Assembly: GCA_947259275.1 (NCBI GenBank)
Contig: CAMYMH010000001.1
Location: forward strand, 37,397-101,396
Reading direction: 5' to 3'
Source: an uncultured Acidimicrobiaceae bacterium
GTDB taxonomy: Bacteria > Actinomycetota > Acidimicrobiia > Spongiisociales > SHLN01
Length of the DNA stretch: 64,000 nucleotides
A program made the position numbers and the translations under genes. Position 1 is the stretch's first letter. Each line of letters opens with the position of its first letter. Positions 2,860 to 55,025 of the stretch are shown here, one piece after another. Below the pieces are notes generated by a model. The model made no database searches and was not told where the DNA came from. It saw only the letters and a program-made list of their open reading frames with translations.

Positions 2860-3058
2860 GGCTTTTCATGCGCTTTGGTTCAAAGGACGTGGGAACCAGT
2901 CCTCTTTCATTCTCGGCCAGCCCGCGACGTTGGACAAGGGCCGAAGGGCCGTACTGCCTGTCGTGGCGGCACGGAAAGAGGTAGCGGCTGACGACCGGCT
3001 CGATGCGGGAACCATCAACACCCTGCCACGTGCGGGATGCGGCATTCGCGACCGGCTC

Positions 3059-7156: not shown

Positions 7157-8178
7157 GGCAGACTTACCAGACCCTCGATCAGCCTCGGCCTTGGTCGCTC
7201 CAGTGCCACTCCCCAGATGATGCTTTGGAGATCAACACTCTGGGCACGGAGCCGCAGCAGGAAAGCCAGCAGCTGGTCGGGTGAGAGCGAGGCGCGGCGG
7301 GCACGGTTGAGCTGGACACGTAGTCGGGCCGCCAGGAGTGCATGTTCGACCGGGCGGTCGGGGTGCAATCCGGTGCTTACTATCTCCGCCAGGGGTGTGT
7401 TGCCCACGGCCGCCGTGAGGATTTCGATGGCGGCGGTCGCCTCTCCAGGAGCAGCGGCTGCAAGGAAAGTCTCCCGCGCTAGATGGCGGCCGTGCTCGAC
7501 GAAACATCCGGCCGGGTCGACATCCTCACCCTGGGCAGCGAGCAGCAGAGCAGTATGGACGTTGCCCAGATCGATCGTCTCGGCGACGAACCGCTTCAAT
7601 CTTCGTCCCCCGCCACGAGTCCCCTGCGCTGCTCGGGCGGCGTAGGTGCGGTCCAGCGCCACCTCCAGCATGAACAAGTCGGGAAGGTCTCCCTCGGCCT
7701 CCGCTTGGATCGCTGGGCCGTATGGATTCCCCATGGCTCTGAGCATCGACGAGATCTCAGCGGGAGTCTGAAGCCGCGCCAGTTCCGCCAGGGCCCGCTC
7801 GGGAAGGCTGGAGGTGGGTACCAGGCCGGCCAGCCGGGAGGGGCTGTCCACACCGGCGACGGCGCCCCTCACGAGTGCTCGCAGGCTCCGACGGTCCTCA
7901 TCCTCGAACGCGAAGACCAAGTGGCGGCTCCGGTTCGCGCTCCAATGGGCGAGCACGGTCAGGTGTCCCTGGGATGTCCTGCGAACCGACCGCTCGAGTG
8001 GGCCGGGTTCCCTGATAGACCGGGCGGTGTCTTCAACGTCGAATCCGGCTGCAGCCATTTGCGAAGTCAGCTCCCACAGGTCGGAAACACGGGCCAGTGC
8101 TTCGAGGTGGGAACGGGTCAGCAAGTGCAAGGCGAGCCCCCGGGCCCGTACGCTGACGTCGTCCCAGACAGGCCTCAC
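7153..8178 (-). CDS. atpC: A/V-type ATP synthase subunit C (d-like)
   Basis: The GTG start overlaps the atpE TGA as a GTGA motif at 8175-8178. The N-terminus VRPVWDDVSVRARGLALHLLTRSHLEALA matches the subunit-C 'NARVRAMRSRLL' motif. The ORF-track version (455 aa) is over-extended upstream. Confidence 0.78.
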   Translation of the reverse strand: MRPVWDDVSVRARGLALHLLTRSHLEALARVSDLWELTSQMAAAGFDVEDTARSIREPGPLERSVRRTSQGHLTVLAHWSANRSRHLVFAFEDEDRRSLRALVRGAVAGVDSPSRLAGLVPTSSLPERALAELARLQTPAEISSMLRAMGNPYGPAIQAEAEGDLPDLFMLEVALDRTYAARAAQGTRGGGRRLKRFVAETIDLGNVHTALLLAAQGEDVDPAGCFVEHGRHLARETFLAAAAPGEATAAIEILTAAVGNTPLAEIVSTGLHPDRPVEHALLAARLRVQLNRARRASLSPDQLLAFLLRLRAQSVDLQSIIWGVALERPRPRLIEGLVSLP

Positions 8179-8759
8179 TGCTGGCTCCCCGTACGCGAGG
8201 CGAGCGAGACCGAAATCAGCGGCCACAACCGTTCCAACCGGCCGGTCAGGCTGTTGTCGATTTCCACTCGATGGTCGTTGGTGACGAGCCTGAATCCGGA
8301 ACTGACATTCGGGTCGACCTTGACCTCCAATCCGCCACGTTCTCCAACGAGCTCCCGCAGTTGTGGAGCGAGCGTGGCCGCGCAACGGATGACCGCCCGC
8401 TCGTCTCCCAGGTAGCCGAGTGACTCTTCGAGGTGAGCCGGCATCGCCTTGCGGTAGGCATCGGTCTCCATCGCCTGACCAGTCAGTGGCTCCGTGGCGG
8501 CTCGAATCCGATCTAAACACCGGGCGCGAGCCAACAGCAGCTGACGTCTCGCCTGGCGGCGCCGTTCTCCCAGATCGCGTCCCAGCTGTGATCGAACCTC
8601 TCCAGCCATCCGCGTCTCTTGCTCCGCCCGCCTACGCGCGATCTCCGCTGCCGCCATGTCCCGCACCCGGGCGGCCTCGGTGTGTCCTTGGCGGCGCGCG
8701 GCATCGACCTCGAGCTTGGCCTCATCTTCGATGAGTTGACGCAACCGCTCCCAGGTCAT
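8175..8759 (-). CDS. atpE: A/V-type ATP synthase subunit E
   Basis: 194 aa, coiled-coil N-half. Its position between K and C matches the Thermus-type gene order. Confidence 0.75.
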   Translation of the reverse strand: MTWERLRQLIEDEAKLEVDAARRQGHTEAARVRDMAAAEIARRRAEQETRMAGEVRSQLGRDLGERRRQARRQLLLARARCLDRIRAATEPLTGQAMETDAYRKAMPAHLEESLGYLGDERAVIRCAATLAPQLRELVGERGGLEVKVDPNVSSGFRLVTNDHRVEIDNSLTGRLERLWPLISVSLASRTGSQQ

Positions 8760-8768
8760 CGGAGGCCG

Positions 8769-8990
8769 CTAACCGCCGGGACGCAACATGATGACGATGC
8801 CGATCACGAACCCGAGAACCACCATGGTCTCCGGGATGGCGATCATGAGCACCGCCGTCGCGCTCAACTCCGGCTTCTCAGCCAACGCTGCCGCCATCGC
8901 CGGCCCGATCCGTGACTGGGCCCATGCCGTGCCGAGGGCCGGTATGCCGACGGCGGCCGCCGCCGCGAAGCTGATCCACACATACTCCAT
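8769..8990 (-). CDS. atpK: A/V-type ATP synthase subunit K (proteolipid c)
   Basis: 73-aa two-helix hydrophobic hairpin with the conserved carboxylate (IPETMVV). Confidence 0.8.
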   Translation of the reverse strand: MEYVWISFAAAAAVGIPALGTAWAQSRIGPAMAAALAEKPELSATAVLMIAIPETMVVLGFVIGIVIMLRPGG

Positions 8991-9002
8991 GACACACTCC
9001 TC

Positions 9003-10898
9003 TCAGGTTTGAGCGCCGCCGGCGCCGGGTTGCCAGTGGCGCAGAGGTTGGTACCGGGCCCCGCCGGGGCTGTAGAACTTTCCGAAGAACTCGACGTAGT
9101 GGAGGCGTAGCGAATGGATAGTGGGGCTGAAGACACCGAGAACAAAGTTGACGAGGTGGAAAAGCAGGGCGAACAGCACGCCTACGACGGCGCTTCCCAT
9201 CTCACCGGCCATGCGGTTGGCCACGATCGCCATCATTACCGAGGCAGTTCCGAGCGCCATGACACGGGCATAGGAGAAGATGTTGCTGAGGGCGGCCAGG
9301 ATCTCGACGGGGGCGATGATCCCCTCCGCGAACACCAACACCGGGAACACCACCAGGATGACGATCACGATCGGCGTGAAGAACCTGGCCGGCAGAACCT
9401 CCGCCGCGGCGAGAATCGCCAGGAGAATGAGGACCACTACCAGCGCCGACAGTCCCCGTCCGAGGGCATGCCGGGGTTGATGGTGAAAGGCTGAGACCGC
9501 CCCCAAGACCAAACCAAGCACGACGTGCACGAAGCCGATGGCGACCGCTAAGCCGAGGAAGGGAAGGAGGGCTTCGTCTCGATGGAACCAGAGCGGCTTC
9601 AGGCCAAGCGTCCGGGTGCCGAGATCGCCGAACACCTCGCCGAACAAGACGCCGAAGATGATCGCAAACAGGCCGCACACAGCTGCGATATGGGTAACCG
9701 ACCGGAGCGTCGACTCGGGCTCGGCCCGCCGCCATAGACCCGCAGAGAGCGCAACGAGAACGATCCCATACCCAGCGTCGCCCAGGATGAGTCCGAAGAA
9801 GACCGGAAAGAAGAAGGCAACGAACGGTGTGGGGTCGATGCTGCCGTAGCGAGGCAGCGGCAGGAACCGGACGATGGTCTCGAAGGGACGAAACAGCCCT
9901 GGGTTGGATAGCACCACCGGTGCCGAGGTGTCTTCCCATTCTTCTGTCTCCAGGAACTCGACCACTATGTCATCCCCGAACCGCTCGCTCACGTGTCTTT
10001 GGAGACTGTCCCTGTCCCTGTCCGGGAGCCAGCCTTCGACGACGAAGGCGTGCGGTGTGGCGCGGGGCAGTTGCATTGCTTGCTCGGCAACGAGTCGGTC
10101 GTTGAGTGCCACCCGGGCCAGGTGCAGTTCGCCACCCTCGGCGGAGACGAGACCCTCAAGCTCGGAACGCAGCCGGCTCAACTCCCCGGGGATGAGCTCG
10201 AGTCGGTGACGCATGTCCGGAAGTGCTTGTGCTACCGACTCGCCCCGGTATGAGGGCGGCACCCGGACTTCTTCGACACGGGCCGCGGACATCATTGCTT
10301 CGATTGGCTGGGCCGATGCCACCGGCACCACCAGCAGTCCCGCCGTCTCGCCGGTGGGTAGCCCTCTGACGCGAAGGTCGAGCGGTTCGCCGGACAGCTT
10401 GGAGACCTCGGATCGCAGTTCACGCAGCGCCTGCTCGCCTCCTTCGGCGAATGTCACGCAGAAGGACACGGTGTCCGCAGGTATCTCGGCTCTGTCGAAC
10501 AGCGACTGGAAGGCCTTCAAGAGGTCCTGATACTTGGCGAGGAGTGCCAGCTCGTCCTCGAGCTCCTGGATGTGTCCGGTCAGCTGATCGGCTTGCCGCC
10601 GGAAGCGGCGGGCTTGTCGCGCCCAGGCTGCGATCTCTTGGCGGCCGGCGGGCCCGACGTCGTCGGAGATCACCGGGGCGGGCAGGTGTGGAAGCACATG
10701 CTCGATGTCGGCAAGTGCCGAGGTCGCCATCCTTACCTCTCTTTCCTGGGCAGGGGTCCGACGGACTGGGGCTACCAGGTCGGAGTCCACCTCGGATGCC
10801 ACTACCTGGATGGTCCCCAAATCCTGGAGGGCCCGGATTGCAGCCGGCAGCCTGGTGAGAGATCCCAACAGTCGCACCTTCACCATGCGCAAGATCAT
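9003..10898 (-). CDS. atpI: A/V-type ATP synthase subunit I (a-subunit)
   Basis: 631 aa. Long soluble coiled-coil N-half followed by a multi-TM C-half containing the conserved Arg region. Confidence 0.85.
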   Translation of the reverse strand: MILRMVKVRLLGSLTRLPAAIRALQDLGTIQVVASEVDSDLVAPVRRTPAQEREVRMATSALADIEHVLPHLPAPVISDDVGPAGRQEIAAWARQARRFRRQADQLTGHIQELEDELALLAKYQDLLKAFQSLFDRAEIPADTVSFCVTFAEGGEQALRELRSEVSKLSGEPLDLRVRGLPTGETAGLLVVPVASAQPIEAMMSAARVEEVRVPPSYRGESVAQALPDMRHRLELIPGELSRLRSELEGLVSAEGGELHLARVALNDRLVAEQAMQLPRATPHAFVVEGWLPDRDRDSLQRHVSERFGDDIVVEFLETEEWEDTSAPVVLSNPGLFRPFETIVRFLPLPRYGSIDPTPFVAFFFPVFFGLILGDAGYGIVLVALSAGLWRRAEPESTLRSVTHIAAVCGLFAIIFGVLFGEVFGDLGTRTLGLKPLWFHRDEALLPFLGLAVAIGFVHVVLGLVLGAVSAFHHQPRHALGRGLSALVVVLILLAILAAAEVLPARFFTPIVIVILVVFPVLVFAEGIIAPVEILAALSNIFSYARVMALGTASVMMAIVANRMAGEMGSAVVGVLFALLFHLVNFVLGVFSPTIHSLRLHYVEFFGKFYSPGGARYQPLRHWQPGAGGAQT

Positions 10899-11239
10899 GT
10901 CTGTCCTCGGCCGGGAGCTTGTCCGACGATGACTGCGAGCAGCGCATCTTCGGCAAGCTCGGCGATTTGATCGTTGGTCACCGAGTCGAATCGCTCCGCC
11001 TTACGCTCCAACTCGAGGATCTCGGCGTGCGCCTTCTGCTCGAAGCGAGCTCGCAGCGTCGCTCGCTTGGCGGAGAGTTCGCGGTCACACCGTTGGCGGG
11101 CTTGTTCGGCTTCAGCCGCGGCCTTGGCGAGTCCCAGCTGCGCTTCCTCTCGGGTCGCAGCCAGATCCTGTGCCAGCCGGGCCTCGGTGGCGAGTAGGTC
11201 GGCGAGGAATCCGGTGACTTCGGCGGGGGCGTCACTCAT
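10895..11239 (-). CDS. A/V-type ATP synthase subunit G/H (small coiled-coil stalk subunit)
   Basis: Start MSDAPAEVTGFLADLLATEARL at 11237-11239. About 114 aa of Ala/Glu-rich coiled coil. First gene of the operon, with an ATGA overlap with atpI. The ORF-track start is over-extended. Confidence 0.55.
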   Translation of the reverse strand: MSDAPAEVTGFLADLLATEARLAQDLAATREEAQLGLAKAAAEAEQARQRCDRELSAKRATLRARFEQKAHAEILELERKAERFDSVTNDQIAELAEDALLAVIVGQAPGRGQT

Positions 11240-11583
11240 TGCTCGGCTTGCCCGCATTCGCCGGGCCCGTTCACGCATGCCCGGCCAAAAGAGGCGGGCA
11301 ATCCTCCTTTCACCTAATTCTACAGGCCGGCTGGGGTTGCTTGTCAGCAGCCCCCTAGGTGTGAGGTGTCCGAGCTGCGGGAGGCGGCTACAGCTTCCGT
11401 CGATGTCTGCATGGTCCACGTCGCGTTCCCTGACGAGGGGCACCCTCGCACGCTCCTGGACGAGCTCGTGGCGGTCCACGGACGGGGGTCGCGGTGCGGG
11501 TGCTGCAGGATCGCGACCGGCCGAGCGACCCGTTCAACTCGCTGGTCATCAACACGCCCGCGAAGGAATTCCTGGAGGCGAAC

Positions 11584-11792
11584 GGCGTGCCAGTCAGCGG
11601 CGCGCAACGAGGCAACAATTAGGCAATGCGACGAAGAGAAACAAACGGAAACGACCGGAACCAACGGGAGCCAAACACCAGCTCGCGAAAGGAAAAACGC
11701 CCGAAAACCCAACAACCATGGGTGTCCTTGAAACCCGCCGCGTTGCCTTCACACGGCAGAGGCGCGGGGTTCGACACCCGGAGCGCCCACAA
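11584..11792 (+). repeat. intergenic repeat element copy A (long form, tRNA-like 3' module)
   Basis: Contains GGCAACAATTAGGCAATGCGACGAAGAGAAACA...GGAAACGACCGGAACCAAC...CGCGTTGCC-TTCACACGGCAGAGG-CGGGGTTCGACACCCGG-AGCGCCC-A. The 3' end is a T-arm plus acceptor-like module. GGCAA.GCG pairs with CGCGTTGCC. Confidence 0.6.
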
Positions 11793-11870
11793 CGCCATCC
11801 ACCGAGTCCTCACGCCGAGATCGATGGCCGCCCCCTGCTCCCAGCGATTGCCGGCACGCTTCTCAACGCG

Positions 11871-12569
11871 TCAGGACTGGCGTCTTTCTGTCGATGCTTC
11901 CACCCAACGCAGGAGTTCGACCGGCAGCGGAAAGATGAGGGTGGGATTCTTCTCAGCCGCGACGTCGGTCATGGTGGAGAGCACGCGCAGCTGCAAGGCA
12001 GCCGGATGTGTCTCCAGGATGGCGGCCGCTTCCCCCAGTTCCTGGGCTGCTTCCCGCTCCCCGCGGGCATGAATCACCTTGGCTCGCCGCTCTCGTTCTG
12101 ACTCGGCCTGGCGCGCCATAGCTCGGCGCATGGCCTCGGGCAGCTCGACATCCTTTACTTCCACCAGGGTCACCTTCACGCCCCAAGGGTCGGTGAGCTG
12201 ATCGATGATCTGCTGGAGGCGCTGGTTGATCTCGTCTCGCTTGACGAGCAGATCGTCGAGATCGGCTTGCCCAACAATGCTCCGCAGGGTCGTCTGAGCT
12301 ACTTGGCCGGTCCCGAAGAAGAAGTCCTCGATGGCTATCACAGCCTTTACCTAGTCAACCACGTTGAAATACGCCACCGCGTTCACCCGGACGGTCACGT
12401 TGTCCTTGGTGATGATGTCCTGGGGTGGGATGTCCAAGGTCCTGGTCCGGAGGCTGATCCGCACCATCCGATCGGCGTGATTCCAGTCTCGGCTCCGTTT
12501 TTGCGCAGTAGCGGTTGATCCGCGCTCGTGCCTAACGGAATCGCGGCTGCGAGCACCAGTGACCGGCAC
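11871..12569 (-). pseudogene. SPFH/band-7 (stomatin-like) gene interrupted by an in-frame TAG at 12351-12353 and lacking the N-terminal TM region
   Basis: The N-part (…[39 protein letters not shown]) and C-part (VKAVIAIEDFFFGTGQVAQTTLRSIVGQ…EREKRAKVIHARGE) are in the same frame, separated by TAG at the position of the conserved VVDP. A stop at 12576-12578 lies just upstream. Confidence 0.6.
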
Positions 12570-12598
12570 TGGTGCTCAGCCGCACGGTGGGAAAGGAG

Positions 12599-13024
12599 CT
12601 ACTTCTCTAACTGGCCCCGCAGCGCGCCGGGCGGGAACGCCGCATTGTGCACGTTCACGTAATAGTCGCCCGGGTTCTGGCGGATCGCCTTGGCCAAACC
12701 CTTGTCGACGCCGTCGACGCAGCCCGACAGCCCGTTGTTCGCAACGTCGAAGTCGACGACAACCCCACTGGCCACGCCGGCAGGCGCATCGTGGATGTGG
12801 GCCGCGAGAATCGTGTCGACGTCGGCGACGGTGATGTCAAAACACACCTCGCCTCGTCCCTGGTTGATCATCACAGCTGCGCTGCCCGAACCGTCCGGAT
12901 CACCCGGACCCGGCACCTCAGCCGCCCCGGTGAGCGTGGCCTCAAGCGGCCGTCCGCCGGCCGCAGCCGGGACCGCCAGTGCAACCACGACCAGCACGAT
13001 CACGGTTACGAATACTTTCCTCAT
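12599..13024 (-). CDS. secreted CHRD-domain protein
   Basis: Signal peptide MRKVFVTVIVLVVVALAVPAAAGG, then CHRD-like motifs (AAHIHDAPAGVASGVVV). The ORF-track start is over-extended into Arg-rich junk. Confidence 0.55.
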   Translation of the reverse strand: MRKVFVTVIVLVVVALAVPAAAGGRPLEATLTGAAEVPGPGDPDGSGSAAVMINQGRGEVCFDITVADVDTILAAHIHDAPAGVASGVVVDFDVANNGLSGCVDGVDKGLAKAIRQNPGDYYVNVHNAAFPPGALRGQLEK

Positions 13025-13411
13025 CGGACCTCCTCCGTCCTTGCCGACACCGTCGGTCACAATACGTCGCCGGCCTCCTTTTGGTTCAATCGTTCTCGGC
13101 CCGCGCTCCGCTGTCTTCATGTGACTGCAGTGATGGTTCCCGGCACAAGAGTCGCCTGTCCGAGTGACGAGGCTCCCGCGCATGCTCGTGGAAACGCCTA
13201 GTGGGATCGCGTACACCGTCTACGCCTCCTGGCTCGACGTCGCGACGGGGTGAGCAGCCAGCCCGGCGCGGTCATGAACGGTGGCCTTGCCGAGACGTGC
13301 CGCTTCGGCGACATCAGGCATTGGGCTCGATTCGCCGTCACGGCCTCGATGAGCTGTAGCGGATGGTCACTGAGGAGAACCGAGGAACAGGGTTGCTGCG
13401 TATGGTCAGAG

Positions 13412-13860
13412 ATGGCAGGCGTGAAGATGCGGCACAGCCGATTGTCTCCTCCGATTGGCTGGCGCCGATTCGGGGCGATGCCCTCGTGGGTGCTTCTCCC
13501 GCAGCTCTTTCTGGCGGCTGGCTGGCTGCGTGCAGGCATCGAGAACGCCACCACGAGTGAATGGTGGACTGGTGAGACGCTGCGTCGATTCCTGGAGGTG
13601 GACACTGACCACGCGGTCACGATCTACGAGCCTTTCTCTCCCATGTGGTTGAGCCTTATGCCGTCGTGGTCGCAGTGACGGTGTGCTTCGCCGAGCTGGC
13701 GATCGCTGCACTGCTCGCCCTCAATAGCCGGGTCCTCGGCGCCCTGCTCGTCGCCACCTTCCTCAACCAACGAGAACGAAGACGCCGGCTGGGGTTGGGG
13801 GCCTATTGCGTGCTTGCCCTATGTCTAAGCACGCGTGTCGGCTTCTGGGCAACGGATTAG
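13412..13860 (+). pseudogene. DoxX-like integral membrane protein with a frameshift near 13640
   Basis: Two overlapping ORFs (13250..13678 and 13645..13860) together give WLRAGIENATTSEWW…TIYEPFS / HVVEPYAVVVAVTVCFAELAIAALLALNSRVLGALLVATFLN. The shift occurs in a CTTTCTCTCCC run. Confidence 0.4.
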
Positions 13861-13940
13861 GCAACCCGTGGACGGAAAGAGGGGAGTCGATCCCTCGCGC
13901 CTCGAAGCCAGCCTTCCAGTCTGGCGAGAGACCGAGCGCC

Positions 13941-13968
13941 GACGTGCTCAACACCAGTAGCGCCCACC
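13941..13968 (+). repeat. fragment (copy G) of the tRNA-like 3' module of the repeat family
   Basis: GCTCAACACCAGTAGCGCCCACCC closely matches the 3' end of copy B (GGCTCAATCCCAGTAGCGCCCACCG). Confidence 0.4.
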
Positions 13969-14194
13969 CATAGATCCGTATGAGTAGAACTCTCGATAGC
14001 TACCAGCGAAGACGTTCGGTGGCCACCAGCGAGGACATCAACCTGGCTATTGACACTCTCTTGGAGGATCGCGCTGGATTACCTCAACCGGCGTGTTCGA
14101 CTCGACGGTGTCATTCCCCGGCCCACGGGCCGGGGTGAGCCGCAACGGACGAAAGACGCTCAGGGCGCGTTCTTGTATCCGAGCGCCTGCATGC

Positions 14195-15808
14195 TCAGTC
14201 ACCAAGAGAGCTCCACACGATTTCACCTCCGACCATGGTCATATCAGATCTGATCTGAGGCAGCTCCGATGCAGGCACCGAGAAGTAGTCCTCGGACAGG
14301 ACCGTGATGTCGGCAAGTCGCCCTGGTTCCAGGACGCCACGCTCGTCCTCCTCGAAGGAGAACCAGGGGGCTTCGCGCGTCATGAGCGAGAGGGCGGAGA
14401 CTCGATCCAGCGTGTTGTCTGGATTCCAAACCTGGAGGCCACTGAGTGTCGTTCCGGTAGTCAGCCATTGGAGCGTGGCAAACGGGTTGTAGGTGGCGGC
14501 CCGGAGGCCGTCGGAGCCAACGGCGACCTTGATGCCGGCTGAACGCAGTTTCTTCAGATTCGGCGCAAACGTGAACCGCTTTGGGTCCCAGATCTCGACG
14601 AACTTGTCCCCTCCCATGCGCAGCATTGCCTCGCCGATAACTCCTACGCCCATCGCGGCGAGGCGATCGTAATGCTCCTCGGTCAACGAAATACCGTGGA
14701 CGATGGTCCAGCGGAGCGAGTCGATGGGCGTGGAGGCGTGGACCCTGGACCACACGTCGATGACCAATTCGGTCGTGTCCGGGTGAATGACGTGCATCTG
14801 AACCGTCCGCCCTGAGGTGGCACACTGACGAAAGATCGCCTCGGCCCGGGAGACATTCTCCGGAGTGATGGTCGGTGGGCGCGCCACATGGTCGTGCAAA
14901 GGCCACAGCATGACCTCACCCACACCGAGAACCGACAGTTTCTTGTCCCCCACTCTGGGAGGGATAAAACGCACGTAGCCCCCGATCTCGGCTTCTTCGG
15001 CGCCCGGGCCGCTGGAGTGCATCGTGAGTCGAACCCTGGGGATCAGTTGCCCTCGTCGCCAGACTTCGAAGAGTGGACCGTATACGTCAGGGCCTGTGTT
15101 GACGCCTCCGCCATCGATCACCCCCGTTATCCCAAATCTGGCGAACTCCTGGCCGGCGGCGATGGTCGATTGGATTTGGTCTTCGAAGGATGGCACCGGA
15201 AGCTGCGCATAGAGCCACTTGAGAGAATGCTGCGATCGGACAACACCGGTTGGAGCACCCTGGTCGTCGTAGTCGATGGTGTCCGGGTCAACCCCGTCCG
15301 AAGGGGCTCTTCCCAGCGGGACGAGCTCCTTGCCCAGGGTATTGAGCATGCCGTATTCGTATAGAAACTGGACCAGCACCGGATGATCGGGAGCGACCCT
15401 GTCCAAGTCCTCGATGGTTGGGTGCTGCTTCTCGGCGAACTGGAACGGATGCCACCCGCCGATCACCGTGATCCACTCTCCAGGGGGCAATGCACGCGCC
15501 CGATCTGCGATCAGGTCCAAGCCCTCGGCAAGACTCGTCACCGTTCCCCAGCGCACCTCGTTGTTCCAAGTGAATCCGGCACGTGCGAAGTGAACATGTG
15601 AATCGATGAGGCCGGGAACCACCGTTCTTCCTTCGACGTCAATCACTCGCGTTTCCTCATCGATCATGTCGCTGATCTCAGCCGCCGAACCAACCGCGGC
15701 CACGCGATCTCCGGAGATGGTGAGAGCCTCCGCGTCGTTGACCTCGTCGGTCCTCATAGTTGTGATACGCCCACCGATGATCACGGAGTCTGCTGGTCTC
15801 TGAGTCAC
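14195..15808 (-). CDS. amidohydrolase-3 family metal-dependent hydrolase
   Basis: 537 aa. N-terminal GRITTM…VVPGLIDSHVHF metal-binding motif and a long TIM-barrel body typical of YtcJ-like amidohydrolases. Confidence 0.8.
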   Translation of the reverse strand: MTQRPADSVIIGGRITTMRTDEVNDAEALTISGDRVAAVGSAAEISDMIDEETRVIDVEGRTVVPGLIDSHVHFARAGFTWNNEVRWGTVTSLAEGLDLIADRARALPPGEWITVIGGWHPFQFAEKQHPTIEDLDRVAPDHPVLVQFLYEYGMLNTLGKELVPLGRAPSDGVDPDTIDYDDQGAPTGVVRSQHSLKWLYAQLPVPSFEDQIQSTIAAGQEFARFGITGVIDGGGVNTGPDVYGPLFEVWRRGQLIPRVRLTMHSSGPGAEEAEIGGYVRFIPPRVGDKKLSVLGVGEVMLWPLHDHVARPPTITPENVSRAEAIFRQCATSGRTVQMHVIHPDTTELVIDVWSRVHASTPIDSLRWTIVHGISLTEEHYDRLAAMGVGVIGEAMLRMGGDKFVEIWDPKRFTFAPNLKKLRSAGIKVAVGSDGLRAATYNPFATLQWLTTGTTLSGLQVWNPDNTLDRVSALSLMTREAPWFSFEEDERGVLEPGRLADITVLSEDYFSVPASELPQIRSDMTMVGGEIVWSSLGD

Positions 15809-16020
15809 TCCCTCCTCCTTCTGTTGACCACATCTGTTTGTTCTGTTTCTCCGGCGAAGATCATACGGCGCGGTGTCGTACCGATCCGAAGGGTCGGTGC
15901 CGGTGAAGAAGTGACTGGATCACGGACGACTGTGGACTCCTCGGCGACCGCTCAGCCGCCACGGGCTAGCTCGAGCACCTCGTACTCTTCCGAGTGTCGG
16001 AGGAGGTGCCAAGGGGAAGT

Positions 16021-16095
16021 GGTAACGGCGACATTGCCCGCGTTCCTTCACACGGCAGAGGTGCCGGGTTCGACACCCACCCGGAGCGCCCACGG
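16021..16095 (+). repeat. repeat element copy E (short form without the A-rich insert)
   Basis: GGTAACGGCGACATTG-CCCGCGTTCCTTCACACGGCAGAGG-TGCCGGGTTCGACACCCACCCGG-AGCGCCC-A. It has the same 5' GGCGACA and 3' module as the long copies, but about 110 nt are missing. Confidence 0.5.
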
Positions 16096-16254
16096 AAGCC
16101 CTTCGGGTTGGCGTGGGAGTTGGCGAAGCCAACTCCTTGGTCTTCTTTGGTAGAGCGCCTCCAGCACGGCACCGACCATCTGGGCCGGGGACGCAGGCGG
16201 GTCCGACGAGCTCGCGGCCGAGGCCGGCGGCTCCGGGCCGGCGCCAGTGTCCCG

Positions 16255-16422
16255 CTAGCCATCACCGCGTGGCGGGAGTACCGATCCGGCGGTGGCCGAG
16301 CATTCCGCATGTCCACACCTGCACGGCTCCGTGGTGTCACCGATGCCCATCCGACAGGTGGGCGCGCAGTAATCGTCACCCTCGAGGGGATCGCACGTGC
16401 ATGGATCAAATGCGCAGGTCAT
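16255..16422 (-). CDS. bacterial metallothionein (SmtA/BmtA-like), 55 aa. Not in the ORF track because it is under 60 aa
   Basis: Manual translation gives MTCAFDPCTCDPLEGDDYCAPTCRMGIGDTTEPCRCGHAECSATAGSVLPPRGDG*. Nine Cys plus His in a C.C..C…YC..C…C.CGH..C spacing, as in Metallothio_Pro. Confidence 0.55.
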   Translation of the reverse strand: MTCAFDPCTCDPLEGDDYCAPTCRMGIGDTTEPCRCGHAECSATAGSVLPPRGDG

Positions 16423-16836
16423 CTCGTTCACATCGTCTGCCGTCGGGGTCTACGTTGGCGGTTGGTGGCGTCGGAACACTAGTTGCGGTGGATCCTGCTG
16501 GCCGGCTTCGATGACCACCTCTTCGAGTGGCTGGATCGTCTCCGCCGCCAAGTAGAAATCAATACCGTGCTCTTCGAGTCGACGATCTCCGCTCCCCGAG
16601 TTGTCAACGTACGCCGTTCGCATGCGTGCGCCGTCTTCGCGGTCTTCGGCGAGGATCCTGATGCCGACGGTTTCGGGAATCCCTTGGTTGCGGCGACTCT
16701 CTTCGGTCAACGTCGCTGCGCTCGTCGAGAGACGGTCCATGAAGCGAGATCACCCCTTTCATTCGTATTGCGGTCCCGCCCACGACCGTAGGTGCGGCAC
16801 GCCTGTCATCAAATCGCGCCGGCCGCCGGACCGTGT

Positions 16837-18330
16837 TCAGCTCCCGGTGACCGGTGTCTGGGCGGCATAAGCCCGATCGGGAGGCGATTCCAGCGTCTCG
16901 AGGCCGAGGTCCGTGATCCGTAGCCGAGTGGATTCGACGTAGAAGCCGACCCGGCCCGAGGTGTGTCGATCGTCGGCCAGGGTGAGCGTGACGCGCCCAT
17001 ACAAGGAGAGTTCGATGTAGCTGCCGTAGCTGACCAGCGTAAAGTCAACCGGCCCCGGGCGGGGCACGAAGTTCGCAGTCTGGAGCTGGTGATAGTGGAA
17101 GGCCTCCTCGATGCTGCCCTGCGTATTGGTGGCCCAGTACCGAATCTGTGCGATGCCCTTGGCGAGGTCGAGCGATAGGTAGTAGCCGTCTCCTTCCCCC
17201 CTGAGATGCATCGCCACCCCGAACTTGCCGCTCGTTTCCAACGCCAGCGTTCCCGACAAGCGATAGTCGCGTCGTTCGCCTTTGATGAGGAACGCCTCGA
17301 ACCCACTATTGGAAACGGCAATGTAATCGTCGGTGCTCGCTTCGCAGGCGGCCGCCGGATTGCCGAACAACGCATCGAGGGGAGTGATATCGCTCCCGTC
17401 CTCGACCTTCGTCACCTTGTCGTCGAAGCCGCGATATGAGACCAGGCGGAGGGCGCCCGACTCGGTCACCTGCAGCTCCTTCGGCGGTGGCAACAGATGG
17501 TCTCCGCCGATGTCGCCCCCCACGTAGAAGAACGTCCATACCAGCGCAAGGTCCCGGCTGTCATCCTTGAAGACCCGAGCGGCATAGTTGCCCTGTGGGA
17601 GCAATACGTTGTCGGAGAAGTTCAGGTAGGGGCCGGTCAGTTCGTCGGAGTACCAGTAGTGGACCTTGACGTCCTCTCGAATGGAACCGATGAGATAGAA
17701 GCGGTTATCCATGGTGATCAAGCCGGGTACTTCGACGTCGTCATAGCGCCGGGGGTGATAGAGCGGCGGCCAGAACTCAAAGCGCTCCGGGGCTACTTCC
17801 TCGGCGAGGGCGACACATCCCCGTCGGATCACCGGTCCCTCGTTTGATCGCGCGGCTGCCAGCAGATAGCCGCGATCGCCGACCCGCAGGTAGTAGGGGT
17901 CGCGAAAACTCACCCAATGGCGTCCCTCCTCCAGAGTGTGCTCGTAGTGGCCGCCGGGGATCTCGAGGGGTAGCTCGTCGGAGGTGACCTTCTCCCAGTG
18001 GTACAAATCGCTGCTTCGCGCCAATCCGACTCGCTGAACTCGGCCGGCTTCCCGCATACACAATCCCGTGTAGAACATTCGCCACATTCCTGCCCGATGA
18101 GGATCGGGAGTGACGTGCATGGTCCAGAGCATGTCGTCGTCCCACGCGCCGGGGTCGGAGATGAACAGGGCGTTCTCAACTCGCCGCCACGCCAGGCCGT
18201 CCGCGGAGACGGCATGGGCGATGTAGTCATGGTTGGGGAGGACGAGGTGGAAGAGGTGGAAGAGCCCTTCGTGCCAAACGACGTCAATATCGCCGATCTC
18301 GGAAGACCGGAACCCGAGACCCGAGTACAT
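16837..18330 (-). CDS. GH32-family-like glycoside hydrolase (beta-fructofuranosidase superfamily) with a C-terminal beta-sandwich domain
   Basis: Motifs AHAVSADGLAW, FYTG, ARSSDLYHW, FRDPYY (RDP) and EVPGL match GH32 block spacing. The start was moved to MYSGLGF to avoid overlapping the divergent ROK gene. Confidence 0.55.
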   Translation of the reverse strand: MYSGLGFRSSEIGDIDVVWHEGLFHLFHLVLPNHDYIAHAVSADGLAWRRVENALFISDPGAWDDDMLWTMHVTPDPHRAGMWRMFYTGLCMREAGRVQRVGLARSSDLYHWEKVTSDELPLEIPGGHYEHTLEEGRHWVSFRDPYYLRVGDRGYLLAAARSNEGPVIRRGCVALAEEVAPERFEFWPPLYHPRRYDDVEVPGLITMDNRFYLIGSIREDVKVHYWYSDELTGPYLNFSDNVLLPQGNYAARVFKDDSRDLALVWTFFYVGGDIGGDHLLPPPKELQVTESGALRLVSYRGFDDKVTKVEDGSDITPLDALFGNPAAACEASTDDYIAVSNSGFEAFLIKGERRDYRLSGTLALETSGKFGVAMHLRGEGDGYYLSLDLAKGIAQIRYWATNTQGSIEEAFHYHQLQTANFVPRPGPVDFTLVSYGSYIELSLYGRVTLTLADDRHTSGRVGFYVESTRLRITDLGLETLESPPDRAYAAQTPVTGS

Positions 18331-18382
18331 CTCCCTACGGTAGACGAGGATCGGCGCCCGGACGGCGTGCCAGACTGGTCCC

Positions 18383-28318: not shown

Positions 28319-29659
28319 TCACCCGGCATCGGTCAGTTGGTCTATCAAGGCGCGAATCCCGTCACTGATATTGACCTGGTACGGAGCCTCCCCGCCTCGC
28401 AGGACCCGCAGTCGCGGTGGGAGCCTCTCCACTGCCTGCCGCCGTCGCTCCTGCGCAGCCGAAAGCGATTCAGCCGCTCGAACCCGCCGACCATTCTCCA
28501 TCGCCAGCTCGAGCAGTGGCCGGCCACCCGGCACCTCTTCGTCGACCAGGGCGATCAGGTCCTGCTCGTCGAAGCGGTGCACTTGCTTCCGCCCCGGCAG
28601 GTTGGCCTTCGCCGCCGAATGCTTCATCTTCGGCACTCCGCCTTCCTCAACCAGCTTGTAGACGACGCCCAGGTAGGGCGCGTCGGCTGACGTTCCCAAT
28701 CTGGTCCCTACCCCGAACGCATTCACCGGCGCGTCGTTGGCCAGCATCTCGGCGATCCGATACTCGTCGAGGTCCCCAGACGCGAAGATCTCGATTTCGG
28801 GGTGACCGCCGGTGTCGAGAATGGATCGCACGGACTGCGCCAGACGCTCCAGATCCCCCGAGTCGATTCGCACCCCCCGGATGGCAATCCCTTCAACCGC
28901 CAGCTCATCGGCGACTTGGACCGCCACCCGGGCGCCCCGATCGGTGTCGTAGGTGTCGATGAGTAGTACCACGTTGGCGGGGAAGCGACGGGCGAAGGCG
29001 CGAAACGCCTCTCGCTCCGATTCGAAGGTGGTCACGTAGGAATGGGCCATGGTGCCCGTCACCGGTATGCCGTACAGCTGCCCGGCCAGCGTCAACGACG
29101 TGGCGACCGCCCCTCCCACATAAGCAGCTCGCGCTCCCTTGAGGGCGGCATCTACTCCGTGGGCGCGCCGGGCTGCAAAATCCACGAACTCACGGTCCCG
29201 GCAGGCGATGGCGACCCGGGCCGCCTTCGATGCCACCATGGTTTGGTGCTGGACGATGTTGATGAGAAGCGTTTCCACCAGCTGCGCTTCTGGAAGGGGG
29301 GCAGTCACCTCCAGGATCGGCTCATTCGGGAACACGATCTCGCCCTCTCGCACCGCGCGCACCTGGCCTGTGAACGAGAGGTCGGCGAGATACTCGAGAA
29401 ACCGAGCGTTGAACACTTCCAATCCGGCCAGATAGTCGAGAGATGGCTGGGTGACCTGCAGCGAACCGAGAGCGTCCACTGCATCGTCTACTCCGGCCGC
29501 AACCAGGAATGAACGTTGGGTCGGCAGGTCCCTGACAAACAGATCGAAGGTGGCGGTTTGTTCCATGCCAGCCTGGATATATGAGGCGGCCATGGTGAGC
29601 TCGTAGAGGTCGGTGACCATCGAATAGTTACCGGGCCCAACCCACGCCGGGGGGTTCAA
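28319..29659 (-). CDS. pncB: nicotinate phosphoribosyltransferase
   Basis: TDLYELTMAASYIQAGM N-terminus. 446 aa. ATGA overlap with the upstream nicotinamidase gene. Confidence 0.85.
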   Translation of the reverse strand: MNPPAWVGPGNYSMVTDLYELTMAASYIQAGMEQTATFDLFVRDLPTQRSFLVAAGVDDAVDALGSLQVTQPSLDYLAGLEVFNARFLEYLADLSFTGQVRAVREGEIVFPNEPILEVTAPLPEAQLVETLLINIVQHQTMVASKAARVAIACRDREFVDFAARRAHGVDAALKGARAAYVGGAVATSLTLAGQLYGIPVTGTMAHSYVTTFESEREAFRAFARRFPANVVLLIDTYDTDRGARVAVQVADELAVEGIAIRGVRIDSGDLERLAQSVRSILDTGGHPEIEIFASGDLDEYRIAEMLANDAPVNAFGVGTRLGTSADAPYLGVVYKLVEEGGVPKMKHSAAKANLPGRKQVHRFDEQDLIALVDEEVPGGRPLLELAMENGRRVRAAESLSAAQERRRQAVERLPPRLRVLRGGEAPYQVNISDGIRALIDQLTDAG

Positions 29660-31134: not shown

Positions 31135-31336
31135 TGGGTGCACGCTGAAACAAGGCGACAATTAGGCAACGCGACAACGAGAAACACTCGGAAACGACCG
31201 GAACCAACGAGAATGGACACGTCAGTCGCCACAAGTGGAAACAGCCGTTAACCCAATGACCATGAGGTCCCATGAAACCGCCCGCGTTGCCTTCACACGG
31301 CAGAGGCCACTGGCTCAATCCCAGTAGCGCCCACCG
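31135..31336 (+). repeat. repeat element copy B (long form) with a closable acceptor-like stem
   Basis: 5' GGGTGCA…AGGCGACAATTAGGCAACGCGACAACGAGAAACACTCGGAAACGACCGGAACCAAC…CCCGCGTTGCC-TTCACACGGCAGAGG-CCACTGG-CTCAATC-CCAGT-AGCGCCC-A-CCG. GGGTGCA pairs 6/7 with AGCGCCC. Confidence 0.6.
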
Positions 31337-33771: not shown

Positions 33772-33967
33772 GGGGTGCTGCCGTACGCCGTAACCAGGCA
33801 ACAATGAGGCAACGCGATGACGAGAAACACTCACGACGGGAACCAACAAGACGCCAGTTACGAACCGGGCAAACGCCGGAAAACCCAATATCCATGCGCG
33901 TCTTCGGGACCGCCCGCGTTGCCCTCACCCGGCAGAGTCACTGGTTCAATCCCGGTCGCGCCCACCA
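33772..33967 (+). repeat. repeat element copy C (long form) ending in a T-arm, acceptor and an encoded CCA
   Basis: GGGTGCT…AGGCAACAATGAGGCAACGCGATGACGAGAAACACTCACGACGGGAACCAAC…CCCGCGTTGCC-CTCACCCGGCAGAG-TCACTGG-TTCAATC-CCGGT-CGCGCCC-A-CCA. GGGTGCT pairs 6/7 with CGCGCCC. Confidence 0.6.
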
Positions 33968-38523: not shown

Positions 38524-38640
38524 TTGGCAACTGAGCACCAAGCAGGCAACTCGACATCGAGAACTACTCGCAAACGAGAGAACCGGCAAATCTCGCCGGC
38601 AGGACCATCCTCCTCTGGCAGCCGGCGGCGCGGGTTTGCC
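38524..38640 (+). repeat. degenerate copy D of the repeat family (5' A-rich part only)
   Basis: CAGGCAACTCGACATCGAGAACTACTCGCAAACGAGAGAACCGGCAAATCTCGCCGG…GCGGGTTTGCC parallels AGGCAACGCGACAACGAGAAACACTCGGAAACGACCGG…CGCGTTGCC. It lies between convergent gene ends. Confidence 0.4.
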
Positions 38641-39487: not shown

Positions 39488-39639
39488 GATCACTCCTGGT
39501 CGGTCTCGACCAGAGTCTGCCAGAACGCAGTGACCTTCTGCTCGGTGGCGCTTCCCACGGAACACGGTGGGTGGAGCTTCACGCTGGAGCCGGTGGTGCT
39601 TGGGCTCATAGCGGCGCCGAGCGGGGTCGGCGCCGCGCT

Positions 39640-39778
39640 GGGGGCAGTTGCGCTAGTCGGATTCGTAGCGCGTACTCCCGCCGAGCTGTGTTCGTTGGCT
39701 TCCCTGAAGGCGCCCGGGTTGCCCGCACCCGGCAGAGGTCGCTGGTTCAATCCCGGTGGCGCCCACTCCTTGATACCC
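39640..39778 (+). repeat. repeat element copy F (short form) preceded by a D-arm-like GCGC…GCGC hairpin
   Basis: …AAGGCG-CCCGGGTTGCC-CGCACCCGGCAGAGG-TCGCTGG-TTCAATC-CCGGT-GGCGCCC-A. Upstream is GGGGCAGTTGCGCTAGTCGGATTCGTAGCGCG. A standard cloverleaf cannot be completed. Confidence 0.45.
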
Positions 39779-40053
39779 GTTGGCGAGCCGCCGGAGGGAT
39801 CTGCGTTCCACTCGCTGTGAGCTGGGTCACTCGGTGGCCGATCCCTCCCATCGGTCGACATGGTGGGGCTCGATGCGGGGACCGTTTACGAGCGCGGCGT
39901 CCACAAAGCCCCAGGAAACGAGCTGGTGTGCGGTGTGTCCGACCTTCGGCGGAGATCTCCGACTTCGGGTGACGGGGGTGGCTGGATTTGCGGTCGTCGG
40001 CGACCGGCGCGGAGGAGTAGTGTCGTGTGTGGCTGCTACACGGGAGGAGACAC

Positions 40054-45868: not shown

Positions 45869-47704
45869 ATGAGCAAGCGTCGGCGACGGAAGCAACTCTC
45901 CCAACTTGCCCCCGATGGCCTGCCCCTGCCTCTCAGGTGGCGGCCCCGGGTGCGGATCTTCGGCCTCATTAGTGGAGCGATCGGAGGCCTGGGCGCGGTA
46001 GTCCTCGTCCAGCAGTACGGGATCGCACCGCTGGGCCGGGCGCTCACCTTGCAAGGGCTCATCGGAGGAGCTATCGCCGGCATCGTGGTTCCGTCCGTCG
46101 TGTTCGCGTTCGTGGTTCGCAGATACAACCGAAAGCTGGCCGAGGCGCGCGAACGCCTCCCGGGCGGGCCGGCCGCGTCCCCCGGCGTAGGCGCCGCAGT
46201 TCTGTTCGTCATGCTGCTCGGCACGTTCACCGCCTTCGGTGCCGGAGCTGCTTACGCGGAGGGTCAGGGGCCATGCCGGTTGACCGTCGAGGGCCGGGAC
46301 GTCGCCGGCCTGAGACTGACCGCGTCCGACGCCATCCTGGTTGAGAGCGAGTCATCGTTCATCGCGTCGATGAGCTGGCCGTCGGATTTCGCGTCCTTCG
46401 AGGTCCGGTTCTTCTATGCCGGTTTCAGCTACGGGTTCGGCGACAGCGAGGTGGACGAAGACGTGAGCGACGGCGGCGCCGACAGCGGGACCGTCGAACT
46501 TCCGGTCGACCTCTTCTTCCAATACGCCGGCGGCCTATACGAAGTGCACGTCGACGGTGTGCTGGTCAATGGCCAGAGCTGCAACTTCGCGATGCTGTTC
46601 GACGTCGACCGCAACCCGCTCGATACGGTGATAGGGAAAGTGGCGCTTGGCACCGCGGCAGTCGGAGCCATCGGAGTCCTCGGAGTCGGGACGGCGGCTG
46701 CTGTTGACGGGGCGCGCACGATCGGCGATCTCACGTCCATGCTCTCGGACATCCCGGGCAGTGTGTTCGACCCTACCGGCGTGGCCGTCGACGCCGACGG
46801 GGTCAAGGATGCGGCCGAGCCGGCGGGTCATGCTGCTCCCGATCGGGTGGAACCTGCCGGGAGAACCGCTCCCGAGCCGAGGGTGGTCACGGATGCGGCT
46901 ACGCCGGCACCTGAGCCAGCTCCTGGACCGAAGGCGACCCCGGACGCTGCTGAGCCGGCTGGTGCTGAGCCGAAGGTGACTCCGGATGCAGCTGAGCCGG
47001 CTGGTGCTGAGCCGAAGGTCGCTCCGGATGCGCCTGGGCCGGCTGGCAAGGCTGGGCCTGAGCCGAAGGTGGCTCCGGGTATTGGTGAGCCAGTGGCCGA
47101 CGCTGCTCGAGAGCCGGAAGTGGCTCCGGATGCGGCTGAGCCGGCGGCTGGCTCTGCTCCCCGGCCAACCGACGGACCGGTCGAGCCAGTCGGGGGCGAC
47201 GCTGCTCCTGACGGCGCCGTCATCGAGTCGGCCGGACCCGGTCCCTCGGAACCCGCCGTGACCGACCCACCCCCCGCCGCCGGCACCGCTGCCGTAACCG
47301 ACGTACCAGGCGGAGAATCCACAGCCGGCGAAGTGTCCCCACCTGATCTAACTTTCGTCGAGCCATCTGAGGCCGCCACCTTGGAGCCAACGGGAGGAGT
47401 CTCGGGCGGCAAGGTAGGAATGGCTGCAGCTGCGGTCCTCACCCCGGCGCTCCTGGGATCTCTGGAGAGAACCGCCAAGGGACGCTCGAGCGGGGCCGCA
47501 CCGACCGCGGCCCCATTCTGGTTCTACGTCACGCGGTCAACTCCGTTATTCGGACTCAGCGACTACGGCACCATCGTGGGTGAGCTGTCACCCGGCACCT
47601 GGTATCTAGCGCAAGGGACGTATGGCGAGTGGGTCCACGCGGTCGACCGCGCCACCAACGTCCAAGGCTGGGTGGCGGCCCAAGCAGCCCTGCCGGCGCC
47701 GTGA
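45869..47704 (+). CDS. 611-aa multi-TM surface protein with ectodomain, second TM, PDAAEPAGAEPKVT 14-aa tandem repeats and a C-terminal SH3b-like domain. Paralogue of the 23553/26600 pair
   Basis: Three N-terminal TMs. TM VALGTAAVGAIGVLGVGTAAAV. Repeats as above. C-terminus FWFYVTRSTPLFGLSDYGTIVGELSPGTWYLAQGTYGEWVHAVDRATNVQGWV. Confidence 0.6.
   Translation: MSKRRRRKQLSQLAPDGLPLPLRWRPRVRIFGLISGAIGGLGAVVLVQQYGIAPLGRALTLQGLIGGAIAGIVVPSVVFAFVVRRYNRKLAEARERLPGGPAASPGVGAAVLFVMLLGTFTAFGAGAAYAEGQGPCRLTVEGRDVAGLRLTASDAILVESESSFIASMSWPSDFASFEVRFFYAGFSYGFGDSEVDEDVSDGGADSGTVELPVDLFFQYAGGLYEVHVDGVLVNGQSCNFAMLFDVDRNPLDTVIGKVALGTAAVGAIGVLGVGTAAAVDGARTIGDLTSMLSDIPGSVFDPTGVAVDADGVKDAAEPAGHAAPDRVEPAGRTAPEPRVVTDAATPAPEPAPGPKATPDAAEPAGAEPKVTPDAAEPAGAEPKVAPDAPGPAGKAGPEPKVAPGIGEPVADAAREPEVAPDAAEPAAGSAPRPTDGPVEPVGGDAAPDGAVIESAGPGPSEPAVTDPPPAAGTAAVTDVPGGESTAGEVSPPDLTFVEPSEAATLEPTGGVSGGKVGMAAAAVLTPALLGSLERTAKGRSSGAAPTAAPFWFYVTRSTPLFGLSDYGTIVGELSPGTWYLAQGTYGEWVHAVDRATNVQGWVAAQAALPAP
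46915..47090 (+). repeat. 42-nt tandem repeat (about 3.5 units) encoding PDAAEPAGAEPKVT
   Basis: gacgctgctgagccggctggtgctgagccgaaggtgactccg is repeated with minor variants. Confidence 0.6.
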
Positions 47705-54883: not shown

Positions 54884-54939
54884 CCACACGCCCTTGACAG
54901 CGCGAGCCGCGCCCCGCGTCGCGGTCCACCGCCCCCTCC

Positions 54940-55025
54940 GGCGATGCCGCCGTGCCTCGCCGGGTGCAGCCAGGTCAGACACCGCTCGAGGCGATGGGAA
55001 GCCGGCCGACGGTGGGCAGGTGCGT
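54940..55025 (+). repeat. duplicated segment homologous to the 5' end and leader of the spermidine-synthase-like gene (58935..59020)
   Basis: ctccggcGATGCCGCCGTGCCtcGCCgGGTGCAGCCAgGTCAGaCACCgCTCgAGGCgATgGGAAGCCG. Upper case marks bases shared with 58935..59020. Confidence 0.55.

Follow-up and report, generated by a model that had tools for sequence, protein, structure and literature searches.

A diverged family of tRNA-Val(CAC)-like repeats with an A-rich leader in an uncultured Acidimicrobiaceae bacterium: candidate relics of attachment modules

The closest described counterparts of the repeats reported here are the attachment sites of integrative elements that target transfer RNA (tRNA) genes. 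The locus in question is a 64-kb stretch of the genome of an uncultured Acidimicrobiaceae bacterium (contig CAMYMH010000001.1, positions 37,397 to 101,396; analysed at its full length and called the window below), which carries a diverged family of tRNA-Val(CAC)-like repeats preceded, in their long form, by an A-rich leader. In actinobacterial integrative elements, as in the attP site of mycobacteriophage L5, the core extends from the anticodon stem-loop to the 3' end of the tRNA, and the identity block of our repeats has the same extent. Paired direct repeats lie about 120 bp upstream of this core and presumably resemble the arm-type sites of lambda and L5 attP. The overall arrangement recalls the tycheposon islands of Prochlorococcus, tandem accretions of tRNA-targeting integrative elements in which same-orientation 3' tRNA repeats are scattered through a variable region, with cargo-like genes between them, partial tRNAs left by old integrations and integrases that are often missing (10.1101/2020.12.28.424599). 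Such tRNA-derived repeats at the junctions of variable DNA are thus a known kind of structure, and the present locus, with its conserved A-rich leader and its array devoid of integrase, is a variant of it. Unlike in the described tRNA-targeting elements, the upstream boxes share the sequence of a core half-site, the leader is A-rich on one strand only and the three best copies carry an extra, far-5' copy of the acceptor strand. The family is absent from the curated libraries searched (Rfam 15), and nothing comparable was found in the literature searched.

A profile built from three long copies of the window (A, B and C) and one copy from another genome, an Acidimicrobiia metagenome-assembled genome (MAG) contig referred to as L001, gave seven nhmmer matches in the window, all on the plus strand and all between 11.6 and 39.8 kb, i.e. 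within 28 of the 64 kb. The same search found no copy on the minus strand and none in the remaining 36 kb, and a separate repeat search of the window recovered the same blocks, in agreement with the preliminary description, which had counted at least seven copies, all on the plus strand. Three copies are long: A (11584–11792; match 11603–11791, E 1e-53), B (31136–31336; match 31136–31335, E 2e-60) and the focal copy C (33773–33967; match 33780–33966, E 1e-51), which comprises a leader and a pseudo-tRNA-Val(CAC) with a terminal A-CCA. In A, the second box is changed to AGGCAAT, the T stem has a G.G mismatch, the T arm is of another type and an internal GGGTGTC pairs at six of seven positions with the 3' strand. 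Copies D and G are degenerate long forms, so that five of the seven keep remains of a common leader of about 130 bases. D (38525–38640; match 38527–38578, E 3e-4, profile positions 13–64) has its boxes 19 nt apart, an internal deletion, a decayed anticodon region and no T arm. G, previously taken for a 28-nt 3' fragment, runs on sequence reading from about 13847 to 13968, with both GGCAAC boxes at 13847–13865, a diverged or deleted middle, a broken T stem and an intact acceptor strand, AGCGCCCA; its profile support is restricted to 13942–13967 and weak (E 0.46 in one search, 0.05–0.46 across searches). The two short forms are tRNA-length units of about 75 nt that lack the leader: E (16021–16095, 75 nt; match 16028–16093, E 9e-9), which has an A-type T arm with a 4-nt insertion and is 94% identical to A over 34 nt, and F (39690–39768; match 39690–39766, E 4e-12), which is of the C type. 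F had been placed at 39640–39778; the copy itself stands, but significant homology starts only at about 39690, where it abuts a truncated YwiC-like open reading frame (ORF). A weak profile match at 28317–28346 lies inside the NAPRTase coding sequence and is probably due to chance.

Divergence within the family depends on the block considered. Among the five long copies (A, B, C, L001 and a further copy, L005, on a metagenome contig), identity is 78–95% in the boxes, 52–77% in the middle and 77–100% in the anticodon arm, while in the T arm A shares just 50% identity with B, C and L001; the figure of about 75–85% given earlier is right in that the copies are diverged but does not hold across blocks. 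The 5-bp T stem attributed to the family is perfect in B, C and F only among the window copies, owing to the defects of A, E and G listed above. Similarly, of the CCA or CCG ending proposed earlier, CCA is encoded by C alone in the window; C74 is retained in all six window copies that have a 3' end (D lacks it) and in L001, and the full CCA in two of these seven. There is no conserved reading frame or tag peptide across the copies, no target-site duplication at their ends and no shared flank on either side.

The anatomy of copy C is as follows, all features being on the plus strand. GGGTGCT (33773–33779), a far-upstream copy of a tRNA-Val-type acceptor 5' strand, pairs at six of seven positions with 33957–33963. 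Two direct AGGCAAC boxes, 11 nt apart from start to start (33796–33813), form the best conserved block of the leader, and the second is extended to GGCAACGCG (33808–33816). Then come an A-rich, T-poor leader body and the decayed 5' third of the pseudo-tRNA, including a conserved CCATG (33817–33914); CGCGTTGCC (33915–33923), which corresponds to the 3' side of the D stem, position 26 and the 5' strand of the anticodon stem; the anticodon-arm remnant TTGCC-CTCACCC-GGCAG, with CAC at the anticodon position (33919–33935); the T arm ACTGG-TTCAATC-CCGGT (33940–33956); and the acceptor 3' strand CGCGCCC followed by the discriminator A and CCA (33957–33967), where the family homology ends and no common downstream flank follows.

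In the long forms, the leader occupies about 130 nt upstream of the pseudo-tRNA, and its boxes, about 120 nt upstream of the anticodon loop, are both retained even in the degenerate copies D and G. GGCAACGCG is the exact complement of CGCGTTGCC at the junction between D stem and anticodon stem; this pairing between GGCAA(C/T)GCG and CGCGTTGCC, already pointed out in the preliminary description, is present in A, B and C. The leader contains 37–40% A and 7–11% T, compared to 17.7% A and 17.4% T in the window. B, C and L001 carry a GGGTGC hexamer that can pair with the 3' acceptor strand, at a distance of 9–26 nt from the boxes on their upstream side; an anchored 6-bp complement of this kind is expected by chance with a probability of about 0.11 per copy. 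The six-of-seven pairing reported for B and C is correct and extends to the MAG copy, but the hexamer is missing from A and G, and the closure is found in only three of the five testable copies. Short stretches are duplicated in tandem in the spacer that separates the hexamer from the boxes (GCCGTAC-GCCGTAAC in C, 33780–33794; GCCGA-GCCGG-GCCGAAC in L001), and the length variation of this spacer probably stems from replication slippage. DNA bending by phased A-tracts was considered for the leader and rejected: three of the five long copies show no significant periodicity of 10–11.5 nt, and the other two give a weak, uncorrected signal (79 and 134 of 2000 shuffles reach the observed power).

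Several lines of evidence connect the 3' module with tRNA-Val(CAC). Two true tRNA-Val(CAC) genes, which came from a pattern scan, match profile positions 149–201, i.e. the last ~53 nt (E 6e-11 and 1e-7). One true gene reads GGGTGCC...GAGCGTTGCCTTCACACGGCAGAGGTCAC...CCCACCA and thus begins, like the best copies, with GGGTGC; since a true tRNA-Val(CAC) gene carries it, GCGTTGCC is native tRNA-Val sequence. The anticodon-arm remnant of the family, TTGCC-TTCACAC-GGCAG, has CAC in the anticodon position, and the loop TTCACAC is found in A, B, E, L001 and L005. In a scan of the L001 copy alone, the last 70 nt align over their whole length with the complete Rfam tRNA model (RF00005), scoring 26.7 bits (gathering score 29; E 1.2e-3), and the acceptor 5' strand begins directly after a conserved CCATGGG; the tRNA part of the unit is therefore a whole pseudo-tRNA. 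A model in which an insert replaced the D arm was dropped in view of this alignment. By these comparisons, which speak of homology and not of function, the unit is a tRNA-Val(CAC) pseudogene whose 5' third has decayed and whose anticodon arm, T arm and acceptor 3' strand have been kept. The preliminary description had recognized a diverged, non-coding, tRNA-derived repeat family ending in a tRNA-like module of T arm, acceptor and CCA; the tRNA-Val homology and the lack of a conserved frame bear out the former, and the module is indeed tRNA-like, but its source is specifically tRNA-Val(CAC) and it spans a whole tRNA length.

ARAGORN at default settings reports no tRNA or transfer-messenger RNA (tmRNA) gene in the window, RF00005 gives no match to A, B or C at E≤10, and the L001 score lies below the gathering threshold, so that the copies are not canonical tRNA genes. 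Like tmRNA, itself a frequent integration target, they place a tRNA-like acceptor, T arm and 3' CCA around a long non-tRNA insert. Unlike tmRNA, they are matched neither by ARAGORN (option -m, relaxed threshold) nor by the Rfam tmRNA models, the GGGTGC/GCGCCC pairing gives G3–C70 instead of the alanine-identity pair G3.U70, no tag frame is conserved, the copies are multiple and decaying, and the anticodon arm is kept. With relaxed settings, ARAGORN interprets the L001 copy in its entirety as a tRNA interrupted by a 126-nt insert; this call is restricted to L001, and a 126-nt intron is therefore not a feature of the family. With cmscan, no Rfam family, group I introns, ribozymes and Y-RNA-like families included, is matched in the window at gathering thresholds. 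Permissive scans of A, B and C alone return chance-level matches only, and a permissive scan of 11.4–40 kb returns just one sub-threshold element, which resembles a thiamine pyrophosphate (TPP) riboswitch and lies away from the copies. These ARAGORN and Rfam searches, proposed in the preliminary description, thus match no known family, in agreement with its remark that the repeats were not recognised as canonical tRNA or tmRNA. A last comparison is with integron attC arrays, which likewise have one site-like repeat per one to three genes in a single orientation, with an imperfect AAC...GTT inverted repeat inside each site. The present repeats are not attC sites: AGGCAAC and GTTGCCT each depart at two of seven positions from RYYYAAC and GTTRRRY, no IntI was found among the ORFs scanned in the window, the genes lie in both orientations and the site is tRNA-derived and about 200 bp long.

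The distribution of the family is sporadic. Of 185,579 species genomes, one (L001) has, in an element context, a 22-nt pattern that is present in A, B and C; a two-block pattern, which is stricter, is matched by a single metagenome contig (L005). The ~150 kb fetched around the malic-enzyme and major facilitator superfamily (MFS) transporter orthologues of relatives are free of copies; four scans of viral contigs gave chance matches only; BLAST against plasmids and phages returned nothing save one phage tRNA-like match; and a six-frame chimeric protein query, aimed at spurious ORF calls over copies, returned nothing. In the boxes, B shows 93–95% identity to L001 and L005, and its anticodon-arm block is the same as that of L001 (100% identity), while A and C, which belong to the same genome as B, are more distant. 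Boxes that are nearly identical are found in three organisms, in contexts unrelated to one another. Being sporadic, multi-copy and partly decayed, and showing higher conservation between genomes than within one, the family behaves like mobile DNA rather than like a cellular RNA gene.

Two further observations were made outside the window. On the minus strand of the L001 contig, upstream of the element copy (2925–3040), a sequence resembling a tRNA 3' end, GAGCACCCACCA, stands ~23 nt upstream of the GGGTGCA of the element; the GCACCC of this relic is the perfect complement of GGGTGC, and an inverted T-arm-like sequence, GGACTCGAACC, lies ~100 nt further upstream. ARAGORN detects no tRNA in that region, where other tRNA fragments may cluster. 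A possible homology between copy G and this relic was discarded, the alignment being unconvincing. At the end of an IMG/VR viral contig (5716–5877, minus strand), the anticodon-arm sequence of a true tRNA-Val(CAC) gene is present a second time, ~70 nt upstream of the gene, an arrangement that looks like the attachment-site duplication of a prophage integrated in tRNA-Val(CAC).

Starting from what is observed, namely the family, its homology to tRNA-Val, its distribution and its lack of covariation (see below), we tentatively propose, with somewhat less than even confidence, that the copies are relic attP- or attR-like modules, made of a P arm and a tRNA-like core, of lineage-restricted integrative elements whose recombination partner was a site of the tRNA-Val(CAC) type. 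Their integrase, of the tyrosine type and either lost or encoded elsewhere than in the window, would bind the inverted half-sites GTTGCC and GGCAGA that flank the 7-nt anticodon loop, as well as the matching upstream boxes; we infer this binding from the analogy to the attP sites of lambda and L5. Integration repeated at one site would displace older insertions along the chromosome, and each event would leave a P-arm-plus-core junction in the same orientation, and element genes would decay while cargo genes would persist with scars between them.

This proposal best explains the single orientation of the copies, their clustering, the junction position of copy C, the sporadic distribution and the mosaic T arm. 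It also best explains the contrast between the conserved 3' two-thirds of the pseudo-tRNA (77–100% identity from the anticodon stem to the 3' end, with a T arm that still pairs) and its decayed 5' third (52–77%), which is the gradient that an attP core should show. The mosaicism is apparent when A is compared with B: the two are 94% identical in the block up to and including the anticodon arm, 100% identical in the acceptor and only 50% identical in the T arm between. Moreover, E has the T arm of A, and F has the T arm and anticodon loop of C without the leader of C. Exchange at or near the anticodon loop would lead to such patterns, and gene conversion by a resident tRNA-Val gene could also do so. 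The identity of the paired upstream boxes with the left core half-site, the absence of covariation for an internal RNA fold and the pseudogene-like remnants between 11 and 40 kb also fit with relic attachment modules. The preliminary description had stated that the copies are not attachment-site duplicates; they are indeed not fresh, identical duplicates, but the statement goes too far, as an origin from attachment modules explains their distribution best.

The remnants just mentioned are three. Just right of copy A, an SPFH/Band_7 gene is split into two adjacent minus-strand ORFs (11871–12341 and 12351–12569) that match profile positions 93–175 and 33–72, respectively, which makes it either a frameshifted pseudogene or an assembly error. 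The plus-strand ORF 39530–39820 has a YwiC-like Pfam match at residues 8–54 that covers the first 48 of the 126 family positions; the homology ends at about 39691, where copy F starts, and the gene seems to be truncated at this junction. The TPP-riboswitch-like element (27885–27999, plus strand; 40.8 bits against a gathering score of 54.3, E 6.6e-5) has no obvious plus-strand gene downstream, the next real gene being that for NAPRTase on the minus strand, and may have been orphaned by gene loss. The genes flanking the malic enzyme and MFS transporter genes follow an order that relatives at 85–89% identity do not share; the malic enzyme itself is 88% identical to a protein of an Acidimicrobiia MAG, as befits an Acidimicrobiia-like chromosome. 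Copy C lies at a break in gene order: the 3' flank of the MFS gene aligns with a relative to ~11 nt from the 3' end of C and then diverges. In another relative (11309–19450 of its contig), with an MFS protein of 85% identity, a tRNA-Pro(GGG) gene comes after the MFS gene and precedes a defence island that contains a ThsB-like TIR gene and toxin-antitoxin pairs of the ParE/Phd and PIN/RHH types; this position on the chromosome is therefore a hotspot of integration in another lineage. Finally, a V/A-type ATPase operon that looks complete (subunits I, E, C, F, A, B and D; 3059–11479, minus strand), directly left of the leftmost copy, could be cargo of the same variable region.

A number of points weigh against the proposal that these are attachment modules. 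About 70 of the larger ORFs of the window were scanned with Pfam or NCBIfam; no integrase, recombinase, transposase or reverse transcriptase domain was found among them, and a diverged recombinase may hide among the ~20 that match no family. The genes between the copies are ordinary metabolic genes typical of the lineage. ARAGORN finds no intact tRNA-Val in the window, and direct repeats flanking an integrase-coding element beside an intact target tRNA are not seen in these 64 kb. No sequence is conserved downstream of the copies, and the P' arm is therefore absent. These absences set the locus apart from the described tRNA-targeting elements, as does the fact that the repeats are 75–94% identical and not exact duplicates. 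Furthermore, the leader lacks helical phasing of A-tracts, its strand asymmetry looks more like that of a transcript than of a double-stranded binding site, and the far-5' GGGTGC(A/T) that closes the acceptor in the three best copies has no role in an attachment site.

The last two points bring up the alternative that survives best, although we consider it doubtful: an expressed tRNA-like non-coding RNA family, possibly carried on mobile DNA. GGGTGC would close the acceptor stem, the T arm and A73-CCA would let tRNA enzymes (RNase P, the CCA-adding enzyme and, perhaps, ValRS) act on the molecule, the A-rich leader would be a single-stranded functional domain, and D, E, F and G would be decayed paralogues. 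It is in keeping with this alternative that the anchored 6-bp closure is confined to B, C and L001, precisely the three copies that are best preserved and that all have perfect T arms, that the leader shows a strong excess of A over T, that the boxes are so similar between copies of three different organisms and that relaxed ARAGORN accepts the whole L001 copy. Wobble pairs point the same way, the acceptor, T arm and long stem containing G.U pairs on the plus strand versus a single A.C.

The structural predictions themselves are less favourable. The RNAalifold alignment comprises the five long copies and thus has low power; it predicts a 10-bp long-range stem, which corresponds to the complementarity between boxes and core, and the T arm. 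The long-range stem is invariant across copies save for a single change, C to U, which yields U.G; the covariation term (+3.4) is unfavourable, and compensatory changes are restricted to two T-arm pairs that distinguish the A/E type from the B/C/L001 type. An internal helix joining the segments that follow CCAAC and CATG seemed compensatory by eye but fails a cross-copy permutation test, its duplex energy being −8.2 kcal/mol within copies versus −7.7 kcal/mol across copies, with 42 of 120 permutations as good. Minimum-free-energy folding z-scores are −2.4 for L001 and −2.0 for B, but just −0.84 for C. Also unfavourable are the variable spacer between GGGTGC and the core (9–26 nt), a distribution too sporadic for a conserved cellular RNA, and the clustering and co-orientation of the copies with decayed ones; no promoter-like site was found either, with a consensus scan that is weak for this phylum. 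The compensatory covariation in the proposed helices that a structured non-coding RNA should display is therefore not seen among these five copies, at the low power noted, and the covariation of the T arm is inherited from tRNA. The present data give no support for a conserved fold beyond tRNA ancestry, and neither the label of a new structured RNA nor the structured-RNA interpretation of the preliminary description is upheld.

The RNA and DNA roles could also be combined, in an unlikely scheme: a tRNA-like RNA gene borne on mobile DNA, with a tRNA-Val shell (acceptor stem, T arm, A73-CCA and CAC loop) around an A-rich domain of ~130 nt, would be transcribed and handled by tRNA enzymes, while its 3' two-thirds would double as a recombination site stringing cassettes into a one-way array, integron-like on a tRNA mimic. 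The copies may instead be neutral debris, i.e. what is left of a tRNA-Val gene that was disrupted long ago and then multiplied locally through unequal recombination, with no function as DNA or RNA. The visible decay of several copies, their clustering and the lack of covariation would be expected of such debris, but no flanking sequence is co-duplicated, near-identical boxes occur in three organisms in unrelated contexts, and T-arm pairing is preserved through compensatory changes, all of which makes this origin quite improbable.

We regard as very improbable that the copies arose through RNA, in the manner of the Mauriceville retroplasmid, with reverse transcription starting at the 3' end of a CCA-ended tRNA-like transcript and insertion of the product; this would yield 3'-anchored copies, part of them 5'-truncated. 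The homology does stop exactly at the tRNA 3' end, with C74 kept in six copies and L001, E and F do have the 3' end without the leader, and F is joined directly to a truncated coding sequence. Yet E and F are both of near-exact tRNA length instead of being random truncations, D is truncated at its 3' end, no reverse transcriptase or target-site duplication was detected in the window, and the clustering and single orientation would be left unexplained. tRNA-derived short interspersed nuclear elements and the 3' tRNA-like ends of retroplasmids similarly join a tRNA module to an unrelated A-rich body, with 5'-shortened members and homology up to CCA. Here, however, the tRNA part is at the 3' and not the 5' end, and a reverse transcriptase, an A-tail and target-site duplications are lacking; to our knowledge, there is no bacterial example of that type. 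Weakest of all is a non-autonomous DNA transposon, either a miniature inverted-repeat transposable element (MITE) or an element of the IS200/IS605 type that moves as a single strand by "peel and paste", with an orientation following that of replication: the copies are short, non-coding, intergenic and of one orientation, have hairpins near both ends and lack target-site duplications, as expected of IS200/IS605 derivatives, but they have no terminal inverted repeats beyond the 6-bp acceptor (this, with the absence of target-site duplications and shared flanks, also agrees with the earlier remark that no described MITE was recognised in them), no common target motif at their 5' side, no transposase in the window scans and no copy in the 36 kb outside the cluster, and it would have to be by coincidence that the whole 3' module is clearly homologous to tRNA-Val.

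Two other sets of repeats lie in the right part of the window. At 46784–47160 (plus strand), six or more tandem units of 42–51 nt (67–86% identity) sit in an ORF of 611 residues without Pfam match (45869–47704), which probably encodes a repetitive Pro/Ala/Glu-rich protein. At 54901–55004 and 58756–59029 (plus strand), two direct repeats of 43 and 69 nt, 79–86% identical, stand ~3.9–4.0 kb apart, one at the start of the glutamate dehydrogenase gene and the other in the start region of a minus-strand ORF of 825 residues without family match.

If the copies are indeed relic attachment modules, the window records the piecewise assembly of a flexible region of an Acidimicrobiia genome at a tRNA-Val-type site, and the assembled cargo may include the V-type ATPase operon and central metabolic genes. 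Acidimicrobiia are abundant and mostly uncultured, and little is known of their mobile elements; with its paired boxes, the conserved leader would in that case offer a handle to search for such elements and for their integrase. If the copies are transcribed instead, they would constitute a tRNA mimic that is missing from current RNA family libraries, which would be of wider interest.

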